DNA of 64,000 bases, from NCBI GenBank assembly GCA_963702425.1, contig CAVPCQ010000012.1, forward strand, positions 1 through 64,000, given 5' to 3'. Under the pieces are notes generated by a model. That model was given only the letters and a program-made list of their open reading frames with translations, was not told the origin of the DNA and ran no database searches. Of this stretch, positions 21,768 to 33,415 are shown one piece after another (position 1 is the first letter of the stretch; every line of letters starts with the position of its first letter). The position numbers were made by a program, and so were the translations under genes. This DNA comes from an uncultured Acidobacteriota bacterium. GTDB taxonomy: Bacteria; Acidobacteriota; Polarisedimenticolia; J045.

Positions 21768-22706
21768 CTAGAAAAACGAAGTCGGCACGAACACGACGTC
21801 GTCACCCTTCAGCAGCTCGTCGCGGATTTCACCCGATATGACGTCGTGCAAGTTGATTTCATGGTCGATACGCACAGCGTCCTCACCGAGTCTGATCACC
21901 TTGATTCTCGTCACCAAGGCCCGCTCGGTCGTTCCGCCGGCCATCGTAATCGCCTTGAGCAGCGTAATGGGCTCGTCTTCACGGACCTCGTACAGGTTGG
22001 GATTCCGAACGGAACCGCCGACGAAGATCCGCATCCGCCCGACAGTCGGCACGTGAACCAGGTCGCCGGGGAGAAGAGCGAGGTTGGCTCCCATCTCGAC
22101 TGCCCGCAGCAGGCGCTCGGAGTTGATAGACACTCGGATGCGTGAACCGTCATCCTGCTTGCGGAAGATGACGATCTCCGTGCCGAAGTCGTCGAGTAGT
22201 CCGCCAGCCGCGGAGAGAACCTCGAGCAAAGTCCGCGACCTGGGCATGTCATAGCTGCCCGGCGCTCGGACGGCACCGCTCACCGAGATCCGTTTCGACA
22301 CCGCCTCTCTGACAAACACAGTCGCTTGAGCACCCTTGAGGTAATTCTCATCCAGGATCCGCGAGAGCTCTGCCTCGAGCGCGGACTTCGCCATGCCGTC
22401 AACATGGAGTCGGCCGACGAGCGGCAAGGAGATGTTCCCATCCTCTTCGACGCGGACCACCTGGTTCAGCTCGGCAAGGTCGAAGACGCGAACCTCGAGC
22501 AAGTCCTGCTGGCCGATGACGTAATCCGGAAGACTGCCCGTAACTACGGTGGGTTCGCCTTTGTCGGCGGCGACTCGCCCGACTGCCACCTCGGGCTTTG
22601 TTGCCGAATGGACTCCCTGCTCCATGGCAGCGGTCGTGGAGAGCGTAAGGACTCCGACCACCAAGGCGGATGCGACGAGTGACCACGAGAAGCTACGAAG
22701 GTGCAT
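21768..22706 (-). CDS. Polysaccharide export protein (Wza/Poly_export with SLBB domains)
   Basis: DYVIGQQDLLEVRVF, VEEDGNISLPLVG, SGAVRAPG, AAGG, GDLVHVP, GDDVVFVP; signal peptide. Confidence 0.92.
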   Translation of the reverse strand: MHLRSFSWSLVASALVVGVLTLSTTAAMEQGVHSATKPEVAVGRVAADKGEPTVVTGSLPDYVIGQQDLLEVRVFDLAELNQVVRVEEDGNISLPLVGRLHVDGMAKSALEAELSRILDENYLKGAQATVFVREAVSKRISVSGAVRAPGSYDMPRSRTLLEVLSAAGGLLDDFGTEIVIFRKQDDGSRIRVSINSERLLRAVEMGANLALLPGDLVHVPTVGRMRIFVGGSVRNPNLYEVREDEPITLLKAITMAGGTTERALVTRIKVIRLGEDAVRIDHEINLHDVISGEIRDELLKGDDVVFVPTSFF

Positions 22707-23010
22707 GTTGTCGTCCAGTTCGTTGCGTTCCGTTCTCCCGGGAGTTCACCACGAGACTCGCCGGGGGCGCAGCAGAGGATACACCCCTTCTCGCGAGAGG
22801 GGGAACGGCTGGTCGCAGACCCTCAGCAGGCGCAAGTTGTAAGGCTACTCCGGAGTCTTCGGTGGACCGCTCCCGCCGCGCCAGTCGGACCCGACGGCAG
22901 CGGCAGTCCTTGATTCGGTGCACTGACTTCGAGGACTCGCGGACGGCCTGACCCGCCTCCCGAGCGGTCTGCGGATTCGCGCGCTCGGCGGCTCGGCGAC
23001 CCGAAACCGC

Positions 23011-23140
23011 TCAGGCAACCGCGTCCGGGGTGCCGCGTTCGATCGCCGGACACAGGGGCGCGCCGGCGAGGTGCTCCTTCCATGGCCGCGACGTGAGCCG
23101 CGCCACCTCGCGCAGCTGCTGGTGACGGCCAGGTACGGTC
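23011..23140 (-). mobile_element. Degenerate IS66 transposase C-terminal remnant
   Basis: REVARLTSRPWKEHLAGAPL resembles the IS66 TnpC tail (VAxLTPRLWKxHFAxxPL; recalled similarity); short and decayed. Confidence 0.4.
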
Positions 23141-23590
23141 TGGGCGCCGCCGAAACCGCCAGCCTCCGGCGCTAAACTTGGATTGGCGCGACGAATCGAG
23201 CCGCTGAACTGTGCCGCGTCCTGCAAGCCCGCGATGCGATCCTGCCGCTGTGAGGCGACAGTCCGACCCTGATCGTACCGGGCCGCTTCGATTCGCATCG
23301 GTCACCTCGGGAGGCATTGTTGCCTGATTGAGGTCGTCCAGGAGCCAAGTAGGCCCAGGGACGCCGGATGACACCCGCTGAGAAGCGACGCATCTCCACC
23401 AGTGGCCCAGCAGCGGGCGAATCGGCACCCATGAGAGCGGGGAGCTCTGCCTGTTCGTGATGGCGGGGGCGGCGAAGGTCTATGATTGCGAGCGCTCTCG
23501 AATCAGAGTCTGCGAGAAACTCGACGCTGAGAGGTAGAGCAGCTTACGGGATGTTGAAGAACAGTAGACTCGGCGAAAGGACCCTATTCC

Positions 23591-23905
23591 ATGGCCTCGA
23601 TCGTCAACATCGACACCCAAGTAGTCGCGGCCCAGCGTCTCGTCTCATCCGATGTCGGTGGCCAAACTGTCGTTCTTGGGATCGAAACCGGTAAGTACTA
23701 CAGTCTCAATGAGATAGGCAGCAGGATCTGGGGTTTCCTTCAGCAGCCGCGGACAATCGGGGAGGTCCGAGATCTGACAGTCTCGGAGTATGCGGTCGAC
23801 GCTGCCCAGTGCGAAGCAGACCTGCTGGCGCTCTTTGAGCGGTTGGCGGACGAGAAGCTGATCGAGGTAATCGAAGGCCGCGATATGGCGGATAGTCCCC
23901 GGTGA
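23591..23905 (+). CDS. PqqD-family RiPP recognition element (lasso B1-like)
   Basis: SSDVGGQTVVLGIETGKYYSLNEIGSRIWGFLQQPRTIGEV...EYAVD...DLLALFERLADEKLI is a classic PqqD/RRE pattern. Confidence 0.92.
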   Translation: MASIVNIDTQVVAAQRLVSSDVGGQTVVLGIETGKYYSLNEIGSRIWGFLQQPRTIGEVRDLTVSEYAVDAAQCEADLLALFERLADEKLIEVIEGRDMADSPR

Positions 23906-24039
23906 CCAGCCGGGGAACTTGGCGCTCATCATCAAGTTGGCGAGGCGACGGTTGATTCCCCTGGCGGGATGAGAGTATGCTCATGCCGATTCATGGCGGT
24001 TCGCGGCTTTGGGCTGCCGGTGCAACCTTGGAGGTGGCG

Positions 24040-24222
24040 ATGTCTGATCGGGTGAGGTTCGGCCCTGCGGATCTGAAGACTTACTCCACCCCGAGCCTAG
24101 TTTGTCACGGCTTGGTGGCAGACTTGACCAAGTTCCCGACGCGCGGGAGTGTTACGGTGATCGGGAACACCGGTGGCCCGTGGGTTCTCCCGGACGGCAC
24201 CATTATTACTAACCCTTCTTGA
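24040..24222 (+). CDS. Lasso-type RiPP precursor peptide (60 aa), non-canonical core ending in Ser
   Basis: GGAGG RBS at 24030; leader motif YSTPSLVCHGLVADLT (YxxPxLxxxGxxxxLT); located between the RRE and the kinase; predicted core FPTRGSVTVIGNTGGPWVLPDGTIITNPS. Confidence 0.8.
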   Translation: MSDRVRFGPADLKTYSTPSLVCHGLVADLTKFPTRGSVTVIGNTGGPWVLPDGTIITNPS

Positions 24223-24244
24223 ACGGGACCGAGATACGGCGTGC

Positions 24245-25183
24245 ATGCCCGAACGGTGCTATCGCGCGTTCGGGTTGAATATTTGCAGTGAGTTGACGCT
24301 TTCGGAGTTACCGTCAAGTTCGTCGGAGTGCCGCGATCTCGTTGTCGTTCGCGGGCGATTGTCTCCTCCGGCCGGATCACCTGACCGACCTTCCTGCTGG
24401 ACTGAGGAGTCGGCGGTGCGGCTTTATTGGCCTACTGTCGGCTCGTTCGCTATCCGGGACGGACGGGAAGTGATTTTGGATCCCCTTCCCGGCGCGGATC
24501 CGGAATGGGTTCGCCTGTTCCTGTTGGGGGCGGTAATAGGAGTTGCGCTTCATCAGCGCCGGCTGGCCGTGCTCCACGCGAGTGCTGTAAGCGTAGATGG
24601 GTCGGCCGTGGCATTCGTCGCCTTCAAGGGCTGGGGCAAGTCGACGACTGCCGCCGCCCTGGAGGCAAGGGGGCACCGGCTACTGACCGACGACGTTCTG
24701 GCGTTGCAACTCGCCGGCAGGGGTCGCCCACCGTTGGCTTGGCCGTCGTTCCCGCAGATGAAACTCCCGCCCGATGCCGTGGAGGCTCTCGGCGAAGACC
24801 CGAGCGCGCTCGAGAAGATCCTGCCCGGTTTCGAAAAGCTACGTCGACCCCCGCTCGGCGCGTTCAACGAAGACGCGGTTCCACTGCGGTGCCTCTACCT
24901 GCTCCAGCCGGGGGACGAACCGAGCATCAATCCGCTCTCGAAGGTCGAGGCCGTCCTCGAACTGTTGTGCCACTCGCATTTCCGGCGGTTTGGGCCGGAT
25001 GTCGCCGGGCCGGAGGAGCCCGCGATGTTCGAGCGCTGCGCAGAAATCGCGAACCAGGTTCCAATGTTCAGCTTCCGGCGCCCCCGGGAGGTGGAGCGGA
25101 TCGACGAGCTTGCCCGCCAGCTCGAGGACCACGTGCGTTCTGTCGTTGCGCAGCCGGAGGCCCAGGCGACGGAGCGTTCGTGA
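24245..25183 (+). CDS. HPr kinase-like peptide kinase (PadeK/ThcoK-type)
   Basis: YRAFGLNICSEL start, LHASAV, Walker A GWGKSTT, LLTDDV, PSFPQMKL; directly follows the precursor. Confidence 0.88.
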   Translation: MPERCYRAFGLNICSELTLSELPSSSSECRDLVVVRGRLSPPAGSPDRPSCWTEESAVRLYWPTVGSFAIRDGREVILDPLPGADPEWVRLFLLGAVIGVALHQRRLAVLHASAVSVDGSAVAFVAFKGWGKSTTAAALEARGHRLLTDDVLALQLAGRGRPPLAWPSFPQMKLPPDAVEALGEDPSALEKILPGFEKLRRPPLGAFNEDAVPLRCLYLLQPGDEPSINPLSKVEAVLELLCHSHFRRFGPDVAGPEEPAMFERCAEIANQVPMFSFRRPREVERIDELARQLEDHVRSVVAQPEAQATERS

Positions 25184-26372
25184 AACGGTGCGTTCCCCCT
25201 GTTTGACGCCCACTCCGCATCAACAGCACTCGGCCGGCCAGTCGACTGGCCTCACACGCGAGCGCGGTGGCACGACCGAATGCGAGCCGTGCCCGGCGCT
25301 TTCGGCTCGGGAGATGTCCCGGCTGATGCCCCATCTCGAGTAACTCCGCTTCGTTCACGCTGAGATAGCGGCGCAGACTCTTGAGCGCCGCGCCGGGTCG
25401 AGGAGCGCACAGCGAGCGGATCAACTCCCTGTGGAACCTCCTCGGATCGCTGACGAAGCCCACCAGCGACTCCGCCGGGCCCAGTGCTTCCAGAGACCGG
25501 CGGACGAGCGGTCTCGGCCGCAGCGACGCTTCCAGCTCGTCCGGTACGACCGTGCCGGTCAGCTCTCGCTGCAGGCGGAGCATCATCCATAGCGCCGTAG
25601 CCAGACCCTGCAGGTGTGCGAGCTGCTCCAACTGACTCACCAAGATCCCACGCCTCAGCAGAAGGGCGGCATCGACCAGCCGCCGGGGATCGCCGAAGCG
25701 CTCGGACATCGCCTGGTGCGACGCATGCAATAGCTGATCCTCTGGCGCGAAAGCGAGGACCGGATGGCCGGCAAGCTCGAGTCTGATCGAGCGATCGACG
25801 CAGCCATCGAGGTCAAAGCGCACGAAGTCGTCCACCCGCGCCACGTCCCAGTGAAGTTCTAGTCGGACTCCCGACGGACTGAGCAAGACGAGGTGGTAGT
25901 GATAACGCTGGTAAAAGAGGTCAGGGATTCTGCCGTCCTGATGCGTGTAGCCAAGGGACTCGAGCAGCGAGCGCGTCCGAGCGAGATCCTCTCGTCGAAC
26001 GAGAATGTCGAGATCGACGCTGAACCTCTCGTCAGCTGAAGGATAGACAGTCAGCGCCAGCGCTGGGCCTTTGAGCAAGATCCAACGAACGCCATCGGTT
26101 CCGCCGAGACGAACTGCGATGCGGCTGAGTTCCAGCCATGAGGCCAGCGTATGGCGCCGCGCTTCCTGATCCGCCTCGCAGATCATCCGCTTGGCGTCGT
26201 CAGGCGCGTCACTCTTCGACAGCAGACCGGCCAGCGTGCTGGTCAACTTTCGTTCGCGCATCAGCGCGGCTAGCCGGTACCAGTCCAACGGAGTCGCGAC
26301 CGGGGGCGCGGCATTCGCTTGCGCGACGTAGGCGTGAAGCAGCCGGATGAGGTAAGATGACTCAGCCGACAT
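25068..26372 (-). CDS. Nucleotidyltransferase family protein (NTP_transf_5)
   Basis: LLKGPALA..YP...RFSVDLDILV, LELHW, EDQLLH, LVD motifs. Confidence 0.88.
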   Translation of the reverse strand: MSAESSYLIRLLHAYVAQANAAPPVATPLDWYRLAALMRERKLTSTLAGLLSKSDAPDDAKRMICEADQEARRHTLASWLELSRIAVRLGGTDGVRWILLKGPALALTVYPSADERFSVDLDILVRREDLARTRSLLESLGYTHQDGRIPDLFYQRYHYHLVLLSPSGVRLELHWDVARVDDFVRFDLDGCVDRSIRLELAGHPVLAFAPEDQLLHASHQAMSERFGDPRRLVDAALLLRRGILVSQLEQLAHLQGLATALWMMLRLQRELTGTVVPDELEASLRPRPLVRRSLEALGPAESLVGFVSDPRRFHRELIRSLCAPRPGAALKSLRRYLSVNEAELLEMGHQPGHLPSRKRRARLAFGRATALACEASRLAGRVLLMRSGRQTGGTHRFTNAPSPGPPAAQRQNARGPRAGGQARRSAPPPGGAGS

Positions 26373-26435
26373 GACGACCCTTCACAACGCAGCGGACGCT
26401 GAACGCCGCGCGCCGCTCGCAAGTCGACGCCCACG

Positions 26436-26927
26436 ATGTCTGCATTGACCCGCTTCCTGTGCATGAGCAGGCCGGAGCGCCTGCTCATACTGAGGGTTGC
26501 TGCTCTTCAGTGTGCCATCCGCCTTGCGCTGCGTCTGATCCCCTTCCGACGTGTCATCGCGGCGGTGAACCGACAGTCGAACAGTCGTATCCGCGGCCGG
26601 GCCCGGACGCGCTTCACACCCGAGCAACTCGCCCGGGCCGTCTCGATGACCAGCGGCCGGCTGTTCCGCGACGCACCCTGCTTGACGCAGGCCTTCGCGG
26701 TCAAGGTGTTGTACTGCCGGCGAGGACTTCCCGCAAGCGTCCGCATCGGGGTTCGTCGCCTGCCGGAATCCGGATTCGAGGCTCACGCTTGGGTGGAAAG
26801 CGGTGGATGCGTCGTCATCGGCTTCCTCGAGGACCTTTCCACGTTCGAGGTGCTACCTGAACTCGAAAGCTGGGACCCGCGCCCAGGAAGCCGAAACAAA
26901 AGAAAAAGTGGCGTACCGTCCTGCTAG
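26436..26927 (+). CDS. Lasso peptide B2 protein (transglutaminase-like leader peptidase)
   Basis: PCLTQAFA (catalytic Cys), VRIGV, FEAHAWVE (catalytic His). Confidence 0.9.
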   Translation: MSALTRFLCMSRPERLLILRVAALQCAIRLALRLIPFRRVIAAVNRQSNSRIRGRARTRFTPEQLARAVSMTSGRLFRDAPCLTQAFAVKVLYCRRGLPASVRIGVRRLPESGFEAHAWVESGGCVVIGFLEDLSTFEVLPELESWDPRPGSRNKRKSGVPSC

Positions 26928-26958: not shown

Positions 26959-28119
26959 CTATGGACGTCGTGCCGGCTGCTGTTCATCAAGCACGCGCCT
27001 GTAGACGCTCAGCGTTTCCTCCGCGCAGCGCCTCCAGGAGAACGCCTCTACGCGGCGAAACCCTCTCGCGATCAATCTCGATCGGAGTACCGGGTCGCCG
27101 GCGAGGCGGTGGCAGGCCTCGGCGATGTCGGTAACCGAGCGTGGATCCACGAGCAGCGCCGCGTCCCCAGCGATTTCCGGCAGCGCCGACGTGTCGGAGG
27201 TGACGACAGGCGTACCGCAGGCAAACGCTTCCAGCAGCGGAAATCCGAAGCTCTCGTGTAAGGAGGGAAACACGAGCGCCGTGGCGCCGGCATACAACCC
27301 CGGCAGCTCCGGCGCCTCCACGTAGTCAAGCAGGCGGACCCAGTCGCGGCTGCCATAGCTGTCCCAATAGCGGTAGAAGTCGCGATAGCGCGCGTCGGTG
27401 CGGGCGACCGCCACGAGGTGGTGCGACCAGCCGGGCTGCCGGCGCAGCATGTCGAAGGCCTCGAGCACGCGCATGAGGTTCTTGCCGGGATTGACGGTAC
27501 CCACGTAGAGGAAGTACGGGTATGCAAGGGCGAAGGCAGCGCACGCGCGCTGGCGATCGGCGTCGGGCACGGGGCCGAACGGCGCGCCCACGCCGTGGTA
27601 GATCACCGTGACCTTCTCGAGCGGAGTGCGCGGGTGGAAACGCAAGATGTCCCGCCGCCCCGCCTCCGAGACCGCGATGACTCGACGGGCGTACCGCACC
27701 GCATAGGCGTTCATGAGCCTGTAGTACAGGGGCGCGATTCGGCCGCGCAGACCGCGCTGGTATGGCAGCCGGCGCGGATCGACACGGGGCGCCTGGTCGT
27801 GGATAGTGACCACGAACGGGCACACGCGCCACACCGGTGACGGAAAGGAGGTGGCGTGCCAGAGATCGACCCGGTGGCGGTGCGCGGCGCGCGGGATACT
27901 GACCTGCGCGGACGGGCTGTGCAACGATCCGGACAGGCGCACCTGCCGCACGCGATCCGACCACAGGTCCGCGAAGGGGTCGGTGCCATGCCGCTCGTCT
28001 TCACCCGTGAAGACGTAGTAGGTCGACTCGCGATCCACCGTCGCGAGCTGACGCACCAGCTCCACCGTGTAGCGACCTATGCCATGTACCAGAAAACGGG
28101 CATCTATTCCGATTCTCAT
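26959..28119 (-). CDS. GT4-family glycosyltransferase
   Basis: MRIGIDAR, GIGRY, VVTIHD, YVGTVNPGKN, FPSLHESFGFPLLEAFACGTP, FSWRRCAEETL. Confidence 0.93.
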   Translation of the reverse strand: MRIGIDARFLVHGIGRYTVELVRQLATVDRESTYYVFTGEDERHGTDPFADLWSDRVRQVRLSGSLHSPSAQVSIPRAAHRHRVDLWHATSFPSPVWRVCPFVVTIHDQAPRVDPRRLPYQRGLRGRIAPLYYRLMNAYAVRYARRVIAVSEAGRRDILRFHPRTPLEKVTVIYHGVGAPFGPVPDADRQRACAAFALAYPYFLYVGTVNPGKNLMRVLEAFDMLRRQPGWSHHLVAVARTDARYRDFYRYWDSYGSRDWVRLLDYVEAPELPGLYAGATALVFPSLHESFGFPLLEAFACGTPVVTSDTSALPEIAGDAALLVDPRSVTDIAEACHRLAGDPVLRSRLIARGFRRVEAFSWRRCAEETLSVYRRVLDEQQPARRP

Positions 28120-28659
28120 GTTGTGGGCTGATTCTCGCACAGACGGGCGGGCATCGCCACGGTCGCACGCGCTGCCGTGATGGTCTACCCCACCGGAATC
28201 CTCTCCACGCGGCCGACGATCTGCGGTCCGCGGCAGAGAGACCCTGCTTGATGCCGATAGCGGGGCCGGCACGGTGAGTCCTGCCCAGCAGCAATTGCGT
28301 AGCATCCATGCGCGGGGATGAGTCGCGGCATTCACCTTCAGCGTGGTGAGTGAGCCGTGCCGCTCGGAGATCGCCAATTGCGTCGCGGTAGGGCTGACCA
28401 ACAGACACGGCACCAGGCAACGGCGGCTCACTCAGGGCGCCCGGGAGCGGTCTTGATCCGGGCTTGGCAGCACGGTATCCATGTGTCACACTATCTTCCT
28501 ACCGCTGCAGCCGCAGGCTGGCCGACCTAGCGCCCACCCGGTGTCGGAGACGCACATGGCATTCCGCCTCTGCCGAGAACGCGGCGCTGTACGCCTTGGC
28601 CGGAAGCGACGCGCTTCCTGTGTTGCGCCGTACCGTCGGAAACTCGAACCGGCATCAGC

Positions 28660-29751
28660 ATGACTTTCTCATCGGAGCGCCTGGCTCGCATTGTGCCGCG
28701 CGCCGCGCGGCCGGCGCTCAGACTCACCGTTCGGCGATTGCGCTTGCGCACGCGCCTGCTGCTGTATCGCCTGGTGGAGGCCCTGCGCCTGGCGGAAGCG
28801 GCTCGGCCGAACCGCCACGGCATCGGCGTCGTGCTCTGCCTGCATAACGTGGTGCAGCGGCACGGCGCGCTGGGCGTCAACCGAGGCTTGGACGTAACTA
28901 CGGCCGAGCTCGAGGCCATCTTCGCTTGCATGACGGCGCGCGGCTACACGCCGATCTCCCTGGACGCGATCAGCGCGTGCCTGCGCTCCGCGCGCCGCCC
29001 CCAGCCGCGCTTCGTTGCCTACACGTTCGATGACGGCTACGCCGATAACCTGCACCTCGCTTTGCCGCTTTTCCGGCGCCACGGCATTCCCTTCACCGTA
29101 TTCGTCACCACCGGGTTCATGGACAGAGACGTGCCCGTGTGGTGGTATCCGCTGGAGCGGAAGCTGGCCGCCACCGGGCGCGTGACAATCCCAGACGCGG
29201 GGGTTACGCACGAGTGGCGCACCGAAACGATCCGCGAGAAGGTTCGCGCCTATCGCGACCTGCAGGCATGGCTGGTCGCGGCAGACGCGGCGCAAACACG
29301 CCGCCTGCTGGAGGCCCTCTTCGGGACGACACCGGAGGGGGGCGCCGTGGGCGCCGGGGACGTGTTGTCGCCCGCACAAGTGCGCACGCTGGCCGAGGAC
29401 CCGCTCGTAACCGTCGGCGCGCACACGCGCACGCACCCGGTCCTGCGCGGTCTGCCGGAAGCCGAGGCATTGCGGGAAATCGCAGAAAGCCGGGAGCGGC
29501 TGACGACTCTGGTCGGCCGCCCCGTGGACCATTTTGCCTACCCGTTCGGCAACCCGACCGCCTGTGGGCCGCGCGAAGAGGGACTCGTACGGCAGGCTGG
29601 CTTCGAGACCGCTGTCACCACAGCGGCACGGCACGTGACGCCAGCGGACCGCGCGACGGCGTTGCCCCGCATCGTGCTGTCCGGCGAATTCGACCCTGCG
29701 CGAGCGTTGCCCGTTCTGTTGACGGACTGGTTCGGCAGGCGTAGAGGCTGA
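28660..29751 (+). CDS. Polysaccharide deacetylase (CE4)
   Basis: YTFDDGYAD, GAHTRTHP, FAYPFG and LPRI motifs. Confidence 0.92.
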   Translation: MTFSSERLARIVPRAARPALRLTVRRLRLRTRLLLYRLVEALRLAEAARPNRHGIGVVLCLHNVVQRHGALGVNRGLDVTTAELEAIFACMTARGYTPISLDAISACLRSARRPQPRFVAYTFDDGYADNLHLALPLFRRHGIPFTVFVTTGFMDRDVPVWWYPLERKLAATGRVTIPDAGVTHEWRTETIREKVRAYRDLQAWLVAADAAQTRRLLEALFGTTPEGGAVGAGDVLSPAQVRTLAEDPLVTVGAHTRTHPVLRGLPEAEALREIAESRERLTTLVGRPVDHFAYPFGNPTACGPREEGLVRQAGFETAVTTAARHVTPADRATALPRIVLSGEFDPARALPVLLTDWFGRRRG

Positions 29752-30484: not shown

Positions 30485-31738
30485 ATGTCAACGGATAGCT
30501 CGAGACCGCCGGGTCGCTCACGGGCCCCCGCACCGATGGACGACTCCGAGGCCGACTCACGATCGAAGGAGTCTCGCCTGGGATATCAGGGACCTCGAGA
30601 TGCGTTTGCGGAATCCGACAGAGCCACCGCACTCGTCGCGAGCGCTCTGACGACCGATTGGATCACGGACGGCGCCCTCCTGCGTTTTCCTGACACGCCG
30701 GAATGGACGGAGCGCGCCGACCGCTTCGTCCGAGAGTTCGGTCGCCGCTATCCGTCATGGGAAACGGTCCGGCTCGGTGGAAGGGTTGAAGGAAGCCAGC
30801 CGAGTGTGAACCACCTCACACTGCGCATAGTCGGACCAGGGGCCGAGCAGTGGTTACGCGAGTCGGTCGTTCGCTCCCGACCTCAGCCTTTGCTCGCGAG
30901 GATCCAACAACGGGCTCGACTTCGTGAGCGCTTTCGGACCCTTACTCCCGGTCTCCGGGTGCTTCCGACCTTTTTCATTATCGGAGCCCCACGATGCGGA
31001 ACGTCTACGCTTCACCAGGCGCTCTGCCAGCACCCATGCATCGTCCGACCTACTCGCAAGGAACTGGCGTTCTTCAACGTGCTCTATGCGAAGGGGCTTC
31101 CCTGGTACCGAAGCCAGTTCCCGACTCGATGGGAGCGGTTCGCGACTCGCCGACGCACCGGAGGCTTCGCGACGTGCGATGCTACTCCAACCTACCTCCT
31201 CAGTCCTCATGTCGCCCGGCGCATCTGCGAGATAACTCCCGACGCACGCCTGATCGTCTGCGTGCGGGACCCCGTCGTTCGAGCCTACTCGCACTATCAG
31301 TGGGCGGTACACTGGGGCTACGAGCTCCTCTCATTCGAAGACGCCTTGGACCGTGAGGAGGACCGAGTACAAGGTGAGCTCGAACGCATGATGTCGGACG
31401 AACACTACGTGAGCCTCACCCGCAGATACTTTTCCTACCTCTTGACGGGTACTTATGCCGATCAACTCTTGGCTTGGAGGAGGTTCTTCCCCAAGGAGCA
31501 GTTTCACGTGGTGTCGACCACTGACCTGAAGCAACGGCCGCAGGAGACTCTCTCCGAGACGCTCGGGTTCTTGGGTCTGCCCCGCATCCCACTGCCGGTC
31601 AACGCGCGTGGAAACTCCCTCATCTACCCTCCCATGCAGGACAAGACCAGGGCGCGACTCAGGGAGTATTTCCGACCGCACGACGAGCGACTCCGGGATC
31701 TTCTCGGACGCGACCCAGGATGGATCGGCGCCCTCTAA
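30485..31738 (+). CDS. PAPS-dependent sulfotransferase (Sulfotransfer_1); start uncertain
   Basis: 5'-PSB loop FIIGAPRCGTSTL, KELAFF, DATPTY, 3'-PB VRDPVVRAYSHY, LREYFRPH. Confidence 0.9.
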   Translation: MSTDSSRPPGRSRAPAPMDDSEADSRSKESRLGYQGPRDAFAESDRATALVASALTTDWITDGALLRFPDTPEWTERADRFVREFGRRYPSWETVRLGGRVEGSQPSVNHLTLRIVGPGAEQWLRESVVRSRPQPLLARIQQRARLRERFRTLTPGLRVLPTFFIIGAPRCGTSTLHQALCQHPCIVRPTRKELAFFNVLYAKGLPWYRSQFPTRWERFATRRRTGGFATCDATPTYLLSPHVARRICEITPDARLIVCVRDPVVRAYSHYQWAVHWGYELLSFEDALDREEDRVQGELERMMSDEHYVSLTRRYFSYLLTGTYADQLLAWRRFFPKEQFHVVSTTDLKQRPQETLSETLGFLGLPRIPLPVNARGNSLIYPPMQDKTRARLREYFRPHDERLRDLLGRDPGWIGAL

Positions 31739-31849: not shown

Positions 31850-33415
31850 TCACCCACCCAGCCGTCGTCGCAAGCCAGGGAGGACCTCTGGGTGAGCCAG
31901 CGGCGCGGCCAATCCGAACATGAGACAGAGTATGAGCTTCACGAGAAGTAGCGTCGCGTCCATTGACCGTGTTTCGACCGCCTGCACGATCTGGCCCGAT
32001 TTCCACTCCGCCACCGGTGTCGACTTGAGGAACTCGACGACGTGCACCGACACGAGGCGCTCGAGCGATTCGAAACCGGGTAGCGACTGGAGCGATCCGT
32101 GCCCGATCAGCAGGTACATCGTTACGGCGATGAAGACCAACGCGGCGACTCGTCGGTACTCAATGCGCTGTCGGAAGAACTTCTGCGAGCGATGGGTCCC
32201 GAATACCAGCAGGAGCGCAGCCGAGATGCAGCCCGCCAGCGCCACGCCATCCATACCCCACATCCCGACGAACAGCAGGCTGAGCAGCGTCTTGCCACAT
32301 GCGGAGAAGCCTCGTTGCAGTGCGAGAATCTTCGTCGCCTTGGCGTACATCAGCCCGAAGTTCATGTAGGAATAGCAAGCCCCCAGGATCACCGTGACGA
32401 CCTGGATACGGGCGATACGCGCCGACCACCAGAATTCGCTCGGCGTGAACACTCGCAACACGGAATCTACACACACTGCGACCACCAAACCGGCGAAGAG
32501 CAGGAAGAAGATGTAGGTTGTGAACATCCGACCGCTCTGGGCTTTCGCCCCATCCGGATCAGCCTCCGCCAGTTCGAACTGCTTGGTCACCCAGGAACGC
32601 ATGAAGGGCTCAGCGACGAGAAGAGTGATCAAGGTCGGGAACTTCATTCCCATCTGCATCTTGCCGACCCCGCCCAGGCTGATCGAGAAGCGAACGATGA
32701 GGCTCTCGATTTGCCCCGCCACCCACGCCACGACTGCCCCCGGAATCAGGGGCCACTGGTAGCGGAGGAGCTCGCGCGCAACGTCCCTCCGGAAGGCGAA
32801 CCCGCACTCGCGAGCACAAAGCCAACCGAAAGTCAGAGCCGCACAGATCGCGACGACGAAGTTCGTGAGGAAGTACCCGAGCAGGCCGAGTTTCAAGACG
32901 AGCAGCAGCCAGACGTTGAGCCCGATGCTGACCAGTAGCTGCATCAGACCGATCAGGGAATAGGCTACGGACCGGCGCTGGATGAGGAGAATGGATGCGG
33001 CCGTGTTCGCGGTGAGGTCAAACACGAAGGTGCCGAAGCCGAGGCAGATCAGAGGGTAAGACGCCGCGTCCCCGAGGAGGAGTTGGCTCATTGGCTTGCT
33101 GAAGATCATGGCCAGCGTGGCGATCGCCACCGCCGGCACGGCGACGAGGACGATTCCGGTAGGCACGACCGAATTCCGGCGGTCACCGGTCTCGGCATGG
33201 TAGTACCTCATCATCGCGCCACCCACCCCGTTCGCGAGCAGGCTCAGCACGAGTGACAGGCTGGTGTCCACCATCGCGATCTGACCGTAACCCGAATCGC
33301 GAAACAGATGGGCGTAGACTGGGAGCATCAGGAATCCGACGGCCTTGCTGGCGACAACGGCGGAGCCGTACACGCCGGCGTGCTTCAGCGTCGCCCGGGT
33401 GAGTCCGCTCGCCAT
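31850..33415 (-). CDS. Wzx/MOP-family oligosaccharide flippase
   Basis: LKHAGVYGSAVVASKAVGFLMLPVY...YGQI, ELLRYQWPLIP, WGMDGVALA; 12-14 TM segments. Confidence 0.85.
   Translation of the reverse strand: MASGLTRATLKHAGVYGSAVVASKAVGFLMLPVYAHLFRDSGYGQIAMVDTSLSLVLSLLANGVGGAMMRYYHAETGDRRNSVVPTGIVLVAVPAVAIATLAMIFSKPMSQLLLGDAASYPLICLGFGTFVFDLTANTAASILLIQRRSVAYSLIGLMQLLVSIGLNVWLLLVLKLGLLGYFLTNFVVAICAALTFGWLCARECGFAFRRDVARELLRYQWPLIPGAVVAWVAGQIESLIVRFSISLGGVGKMQMGMKFPTLITLLVAEPFMRSWVTKQFELAEADPDGAKAQSGRMFTTYIFFLLFAGLVVAVCVDSVLRVFTPSEFWWSARIARIQVVTVILGACYSYMNFGLMYAKATKILALQRGFSACGKTLLSLLFVGMWGMDGVALAGCISAALLLVFGTHRSQKFFRQRIEYRRVAALVFIAVTMYLLIGHGSLQSLPGFESLERLVSVHVVEFLKSTPVAEWKSGQIVQAVETRSMDATLLLVKLILCLMFGLAAPLAHPEVLPGLRRRLGG

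Follow-up and report, generated by a model that had tools for sequence, protein, structure and literature searches.

The cassette and its precursor peptide

The stretch analysed here, called the window throughout, is the first 64 kb of contig C12 (CAVPCQ010000012.1, 240,739 bp) in the genome of an uncultured Acidobacteriota bacterium from sediment (5.1 Mb in 42 contigs, 91% complete, GC content 0.712). Positions 23591..26927 of the window hold a five-gene cassette of the lasso type, encoding a ribosomally synthesised and post-translationally modified peptide (RiPP) with its enzymes, in which no cyclase is found. The genes are:

23591..23905, plus strand: B1, PqqD-type RiPP recognition element (RRE), 104 aa (PF05402, 64.9 bits; NF033536 lasso_PqqD_Bac, 76.2 bits, cut-off 80)
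24040..24222, plus strand: precursor A, 60 aa (ATG at 24040, GGAGG 5 nt upstream; weak NF033528 lasso_cyano match at the leader)
24245..25183, plus strand: K, HprK-like peptide kinase, 312 aa (PF07475 Hpr_kinase_C, about 22.3-22.5 bits, weak and under cut-off)
25068..26372, minus strand: N, NTP_transf_5 nucleotidyltransferase, 434 aa (PF14907, 136.8 bits, profile positions 2-248 of 249)
26469..26927, plus strand: B2, transglutaminase-like Cys leader peptidase, 152 aa (NF033537 lasso_biosyn_B2, 86.9 bits, cut-off 33; PF13471 Transglut_core3, 77.3 bits)

None of the five reading frames is interrupted, and the catalytic motifs are preserved. Read directly from the sequence, K has the P-loop GWGKST and N a DLD motif; against TIGR04352 (HprK-related kinase A) K scores 41.6 bits and does not reach the equivalog cut-off of 200. 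The B2 reading frame is open from 26436, and its start was placed at 26469 because close homologues, at 84-90% identity, are 152 aa long. B2 is present in a single copy in the genome and retains the CL and HAW motifs, conserved in the 31 B2 homologues that were collected. The preliminary description of this DNA had reported five genes at these places and described a lasso-type cassette with an intact B2. The cassette is indeed of lasso type and intact, with family matches and motifs for B1, K, N and B2 and a YxxPxL leader on the precursor. All five genes of its layout stand, but it left unremarked that N lies on the minus strand. N is convergent with K, the two overlapping by about 115 nt, and B2 is divergent from N, so that the cassette comprises at least three transcription units. 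A simple scan gave no promoter-like site and one terminator-like site, inside N, neither count being above shuffle expectation.

The precursor could start at 23977, but the GGAGG 5 nt upstream makes the ATG at 24040 the most likely start. Its leader, residues 1-31, carries YSTPSLVCHGLVADLTK, in which Tyr15-x-x-Pro18-x-Leu20 together with Thr30 at position -2 fits the lasso leader motif YxxPxL. According to the published rule this motif spans positions -17 to -12 relative to the cut (PMC10368454), and the cut is therefore predicted after Lys31. The predicted core, residues 32-60, is FPTRGSVTVIGNTGGPWVLPDGTIITNPS, with 29 aa, Asp21 as its sole acid and a C-terminal Ser, exactly as first described.

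No recognisable cyclase in the genome

Candidate cyclases were sought with PF00733 (Asn_synthase), the asparagine-synthase equivalog TIGR01536 (cut-off 267 bits) and the lasso-cyclase model NF033535 (cut-off 525 bits). Five proteins in the genome match PF00733, and none of them is encoded on C12. All five pass TIGR01536, at 393-480 bits, and fall under the NF033535 cut-off, at 164-258 bits. Each retains the Met-Cys-Gly glutaminase nucleophile, whereas the cyclases of related loci start with MSAI or MSGI, and the five genes are located in polysaccharide loci. These proteins are true AsnB-type glutamine amidotransferases. A six-frame search with NF033535 at E <= 1 returned the same five genes and two 9-bit noise matches, with nothing on C12, so no cyclase remnant lies beside the cassette. 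As a positive control, the same model gives 855, 708 and 662 bits for the cyclases adjoining the three nearest kinase relatives. The absence of a cyclase, originally stated for 64 kb and coupled with the suggestion of a whole-genome profile search, thus holds for the entire 240-kb contig, and none is recognisable in the 91% of the genome that is assembled.

At two polysaccharide loci outside the window, C3:43319-47724 (L017) and C19:155880-159238 (L019), an NTP_transf_5 paralogue accompanies a true AsnB-type amidotransferase. The distance to PqqD genes is about 8 kb for the former and about 50 kb for the latter, and a weak HprK-like gene adjoins a PqqD gene at C19:106941-108078, near IS701 fragments; neither locus has a B2 or a lasso-type precursor. 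A kinase gene at C10:1-933 (HprK_rel_A-like, 60.9 bits, under cut-off) was considered as part of a second cassette and rejected. It runs off the edge of its contig, and the neighbours on that contig, among which there are no RiPP genes, encode TrkA-like, TerC and RNase E/G proteins.

A precursor family without a conserved ring acceptor

Relatives of the precursor were collected as five clusters from a word-based search, with more from cluster look-ups, and from one 3.8-kb metagenome contig (L028). The resulting alignment holds nine precursors: that of the window and eight further metagenome sequences, L028 included, which are 64-76% identical to it. In the leader, Y15, P18, L20 to A27, L29 and T30 are invariant. 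In the core the invariant features are Phe-Pro at positions 1-2 and a GGPWVLPDGT block, and all nine peptides end in Pro-Ser, this C-terminal Ser being the only invariant Ser. Core positions 3-13 vary. An Asp or Glu at core positions 7-9, where the ring acceptor of a lasso peptide would be expected, is missing from the window precursor and occurs in two of the nine (Glu9). The statement that the core cannot form a lasso ring by the usual acceptor thus extends from one peptide to a lack conserved in most of its family.

Scans with the precursor alignment across GTDB genome contigs and JGI metagenome contigs yielded one true relative, L028; four other loci (L027, L029, L030 and L031) were discarded, since their matches are short and due to chance and B1, K, N and B2 are missing from their surroundings. 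In a library of 1.84 billion representative proteins the precursor profile had 12 matches at E <= 0.001, of which P0003 alone belongs to the family. P0025 (1442 aa) and P0027 (469 aa) are repeat proteins that share only the turn motif 'LPDGT' with it. The profile matches them 15 and 5 times, respectively, by way of 'Y-T/V-L-P-D-G-T-V-V', and the similarity is most likely a coincidence of motif; these repeats hint that WVLPDGT may form a beta-turn. P0033 (72 aa) was likewise set aside as a different lasso-type precursor, in which the leader PYxEPQVIDYGTVAELTKKPG is tandemly duplicated.

Around the precursor, L028 reproduces the order wza-B1-A-K-N at 72-87% protein identity (87% for B1) and repeats the overlap of K with N. 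The ratio of nonsynonymous to synonymous substitution rates (dN/dS) between the two loci is 0.37 for wza, 0.16 for B1, 0.24 for A and 0.25 for K. Because the peptide is conserved in eight further sequences and the gene order recurs on L028, the cassette is more than a chance assembly. To judge from the recurring precursor with its invariant blocks and from dN/dS values of 0.16-0.37, it is not decayed.

The homologues of K and B2 form tight groups. Homologues of K that are 81-83% identical occur on contigs that also hold family precursors, the next matches being at most 45% identical; B2 homologues fall at 84-90% and then at most 46%. In all, 11 sequences belong to the K cluster and 17 to the four B2 clusters. 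Judging contig identity from equal lengths, one 11-kb contig appears to hold A, K and B2, and one 3369-bp contig appears to hold K and B2 complete. In the window the distance from the start of K to the end of B2 is 2683 bp, and on a 3369-bp contig carrying both genes complete, a cyclase would not fit between them. In a diverged strain, contigs of run X2 bridge the upstream-B1-A, N-B2 and B2-GT4 junctions without insertions. The sequencing-run contigs on the window are short, and the uncovered parts in runs X1, X3 and X5 are uninformative either way.

Relatives in the phylum

Within the same family of the host no B2 homologue was found in 22 sampled genomes. Three of 60 relatives have one, all from one other family of the class, and the two of these that were read further carry a canonical N-B1-B2-C-K cluster. 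Kinase homologues are more widespread, occurring in 65 of the 401 genomes of a phylum sample (E <= 1e-10); the closest is 38% identical and stands in a canonical lasso cluster. For the 40 best kinase matches about 20 kb around each was annotated with iteratively built profiles, and a cyclase-like gene was found within about 10 kb in 36 of them. An objective leader pattern picked out 19 precursors in 17 of the cyclase-bearing loci, and in 16 of the 19 the core has Asp or Glu at positions 7-9. The exceptions are L094, with none, and L118 and L119, both with Asp10. By the same pattern the precursors of the window and of L028 have no such residue. The proposal that acceptor-less cores go with the lack of a cyclase would lead one to expect this contrast.

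Three of the cyclase-cluster precursors (L093 9303-9416, L093 13950-14078 and L098 11402-11530) have Phe, Met or Leu, not Gly, as the first residue of their predicted core. All share Asp9, a DAAF motif and a C-terminal Ser.

The four kinase loci without a cyclase differ among themselves. L096 (G211), which is cut by a contig end, and L113 (G424) have N-PqqD-K without B2, beside genes for a PEP-CTERM protein, GDP-mannose dehydratase and ATP sulfurylase/APS kinase, the last for synthesis of 3'-phosphoadenylyl sulfate (PAPS). L104 (G327:C19) consists of K and one fused B1/B2/N reading frame, adjoining a PMT_2 GT-C glycosyltransferase. L109 (G438) has the kinase and B2 only, among housekeeping genes. 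In a quick tree of the kinases the window pairs with L028 (support 100), and the cyclase-less loci are spread over the tree, a pattern that suggests that the cyclase was lost several times independently.

L096 and L113 look like the systems of the HprK-related kinase A and PqqD families TIGR04352 and TIGR04353, which we take to belong to PEP-CTERM polysaccharide loci. Those systems share with the cassette an HprK-like kinase, a PqqD protein, a nucleotidyltransferase, the polysaccharide setting and the absence of a cyclase. Unlike the cassette, they lack B2 and a lasso-type precursor.

Comparison with known systems

The closest published parallel is that of the linear, polyphosphorylated peptides (LPPs) of Bacillota (Popov et al., Nat Commun, May 2026; PMC13381572), which are made by an RRE, an HprK-like kinase and an NTP transferase without a cyclase, often in capsule loci. 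Since these are already in print, the cassette does not represent the wholly new RiPP class that had been proposed for it. The two systems have in common a discrete RRE, the kinase, the NTP transferase, the lack of a macrolactam cyclase, a Y-type YxxP leader motif, the polysaccharide-locus setting and an evolutionary link to phosphorylated lasso clusters. They differ in several respects. As described, the LPP leader is removed by an SpI-like (SipW-type) peptidase, in place of which the cassette has B2; no signal-peptidase family is among the Pfam matches of 37 window reading frames. The LPP core cluster includes an MsbA-like exporter, whereas none is seen in the 64-kb window. The LPP leader motif YxxPxVLxHQxIxFETxxS is not present in the cassette precursor. 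In LPP the phosphosite is core Ser3, and a Ser-to-Thr variant was unphosphorylated (PMC13381572); the cassette family has Thr or Gly at position 3, and its one invariant Ser is the C-terminal residue. Finally, LPPs are described as restricted to Bacillota, whereas the host of the cassette is a bacterium of 71% GC with Wza-type export genes. Most likely the cassette is a variation on the LPP scheme that depends on B2.

Phosphorylated lasso peptides provide the other comparison. Clusters of the paeninodin and pseudomycoidin type, and proteobacterial ones, share with the cassette the split B1/B2, the HprK-like kinase, the PsmN-like NTP_transf_5 enzyme and a Ser-ended precursor (PMC8498205; PMC6993621). 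Unlike the cassette, they have a lasso cyclase and a ring acceptor in the core, and their genes are usually co-directional with an ABC exporter. The kinase acts on the C-terminal Ser in paeninodin and pseudomycoidin (PMC8498205, PMC6993621) and on Ser3 in Bsf (PMC10368454), as it does in LPP. PsmN is required for the hexose on the phosphoserine of pseudomycoidin (PMC6993621, PMC8498205). The Bsf-type cluster of Bradymonas resembles the cassette in being Gram-negative, in having B1, B2, K and N, and in its YxxPxL at -17 to -12; it differs by a cyclase, a Gly1-Asp8 ring, Ile at -2 and phosphorylation at Ser3 (PMC10368454). A literature search that left out subscription journals and preprint supplements found no paper on cyclase-less cassettes that keep B2.

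A linear phosphopeptide as the probable product

Because the genome has no recognisable cyclase and the acceptor-less core is conserved in the family, a linear, leader-cleaved, C-terminally phosphorylated peptide is the best reading of the cassette. On balance, and with some way to go to certainty, we think it probable that the cassette is a working derivative of a phosphorylated-lasso-peptide cluster that has lost its cyclase, and that its B2-cleaved linear peptide is phosphorylated on the C-terminal Ser. The chemistry is modelled on homologous systems. By family resemblance B1 would bind the YxxPxL leader. The HprK-like kinase would phosphorylate Ser60, once or several times, as its counterparts do in paeninodin, pseudomycoidin and LPP. 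B1 and B2 together would cut after Thr30-Lys31, if the -17 rule applies, and release a 29-residue core starting with Phe-Pro. The NTP_transf_5 enzyme may then extend the phosphate with a sugar or a nucleotide, which is the weakest step of the scheme. No macrolactam ring would form.

Several observations weigh against this reading. No ABC or MsbA-like exporter was found by domain matches among the reading frames scanned across the 64 kb, and the cassette is not one operon, N being on the opposite strand and divergent from B2. The expected acceptor position is itself imperfect as a guide, since by the -17 rule three of the 19 cyclase-linked precursors have no Asp or Glu at 7-9. The NF033535 cut-off alone is an imperfect test as well, because the cyclase of a same-class relative (L032) scores 302 bits, and with 91% of the genome in hand a cyclase could lie in the missing part. 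The kinase tree, being a quick one, groups the window only loosely with two cyclase-bearing loci, and its support for a place beside a cluster with a C-terminal Ser core is weak (SH-aLRT 85). G45 and D52 (GGPWVLPD) stand at an invariant spacing and have an 8-residue tail after them, an arrangement that matches the geometry of a small lasso core. The phosphosite and the activity of N are assigned by analogy: the role first proposed for the nucleotidyltransferase derives from one Bacillus system (PMC6993621), and in the heterologous LPP host LppN is reported to have shown no activity (PMC13381572).

A linear, phosphorylated product would mean that the B1/B2 recognition and cleavage of lasso leaders has been reused without the knot and that LPP-like chemistry is confined neither to Bacillota nor to the signal-peptidase route. 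The family offers a compact five-gene system with a sharply conserved 10-residue block. Together with the LPP and paeninodin clusters, the cassette is a further case of such peptides inside polysaccharide loci (PMC13381572).

The polysaccharide setting and possible further modification

Polysaccharide genes flank the cassette on both sides. Upstream are a GH39-like hydrolase and a Wza-like exporter, and the nearest neighbours are:

21768..22706, minus strand: Wza-like polysaccharide export protein (Poly_export and SLBB domains; TIGR03027, 117 bits, under cut-off)
26959-28431, minus strand: GT4 glycosyltransferase (Pfam match)
28660-29751, plus strand: polysaccharide deacetylase (Pfam match)
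30485-31738, plus strand: sulfotransferase (Pfam match)
31850-33415, minus strand: Polysacc_synt flippase (Pfam match)

The Wza-like gene is syntenic with the cassette on L028 too, where it is 81% identical. The gap between wza and B1 (22707-23590, 885 bp) contains no confident gene, and the simple scan saw no promoter-like site in it. About 160 residues at the N-terminus of the sulfotransferase form an extension without a family match.

The link of the cassette to polysaccharide synthesis is one of co-location, conserved on the wza side in two genomes; the idea that the peptide serves as carrier or anchor for the glycan machinery goes beyond this. An extended form of that idea would make the family a separate Gram-negative RiPP family, in which a linear 28-29-residue peptide with the GGPWVLPDGT block is released by B1/B2, its C-terminal phosphoserine is extended by the NTP_transf_5 enzyme, and the product works within the adjoining pathway (Wza, GT4, deacetylase, sulfotransferase, flippase), for example as a glycan primer, anchor or export signal, and not as a free antibiotic-like product. 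We regard this as doubtful, with perhaps a small chance of being right.

Alternatively, the defining modification could be neither the ring nor the phosphate but one installed by the GT4, deacetylase or sulfotransferase encoded next door; the product would then be a linear RiPP that is glycosylated or sulfated, and the kinase and N would only prepare the attachment site. The genes for these enzymes and the flippase follow directly after B2, the cyclase-less loci L096 and L113 adjoin genes that provide PAPS, the sulfate donor, paeninodin-type clusters are reported to include putative sulfotransferase genes (PMC8498205), and Popov et al. consider that surrounding polysaccharide genes may add modifications (PMC13381572). 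However, co-location is the one argument for it, such genes are ordinary in polysaccharide loci, and on L028 the arrangement can be checked on the wza side only. This alternative therefore seems unlikely to us.

Residual cyclisation or decay

We give even less weight to the possibility that the peptide is still cyclised, either by a cyclase encoded in the unassembled 9% of this 91% complete genome or by an AsnB-like enzyme acting in trans. A second cut might then expose the cryptic core GGPWVLPD (Gly45-Asp52) for ring formation, and the product would be a small phosphorylated lasso or a branched-cyclic peptide. In its favour, G45-G46 and D52 are invariant with the spacing of an 8-membered ring and an 8-residue tail ending in Ser, the stretch from the predicted cut to G45 is the most variable part of the peptide, and the nearest kinase relatives stand in cyclase-bearing clusters. 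Against it, the register set by YxxPxL and Thr at -2 places the cut 13 residues upstream of G45, and position -2 of the alternative site is not a conserved Thr, being T, P or G. The five AsnB homologues retain the glutaminase Cys, pass the AsnB equivalog and lie in polysaccharide loci; the 240-kb contig contains no cyclase fragment; and on the short contigs of the family a cyclase would not fit between K and B2.

That the cassette is merely a relic, a lasso cluster without its cyclase from which no product is made any more, would fit the minority status of the cyclase-less state (4 of the 40 loci of the phylum sample), the scatter of such loci on the kinase tree with its implied repeated losses, the lower GC content around it (0.65 against 0.712), the lack of a homologue in the 22 genomes of the same family and the missing exporter, but seems just as unlikely in view of five open reading frames that keep their catalytic motifs, of dN/dS values of 0.16-0.25 for B1, A and K, and of precursors at 64-76% identity that preserve the invariant leader and core block in at least nine sequences on many contigs.

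A low-GC region with NRPS/PKS genes

The cassette sits in a compositional island: from about 20 to 100 kb of C12 (in the window, from 19.4 kb onward) the GC content is about 0.65, compared with 0.712 for the genome. This block of about 80 kb includes the polysaccharide genes, the peptide cassette and genes for a nonribosomal peptide synthetase/polyketide synthase (NRPS/PKS), and its composition suggests an acquired island. No tRNA genes were found in the 64-kb window.

Downstream of the polysaccharide genes are a phosphopantetheinyl transferase, thioesterases and the large NRPS/PKS. The hybrid NRPS/PKS region occupies 33418-63958 of the window on the minus strand, directly after the polysaccharide genes. 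Its reading frames measure 4221 aa, 3687 aa and more than 1165 aa and encode C, A, PCP, KS, AT and KR domains together with a docking domain of the TubC type. The region is accompanied, also on the minus strand, by the phosphopantetheinyl transferase, a thioesterase and two alpha/beta hydrolases.

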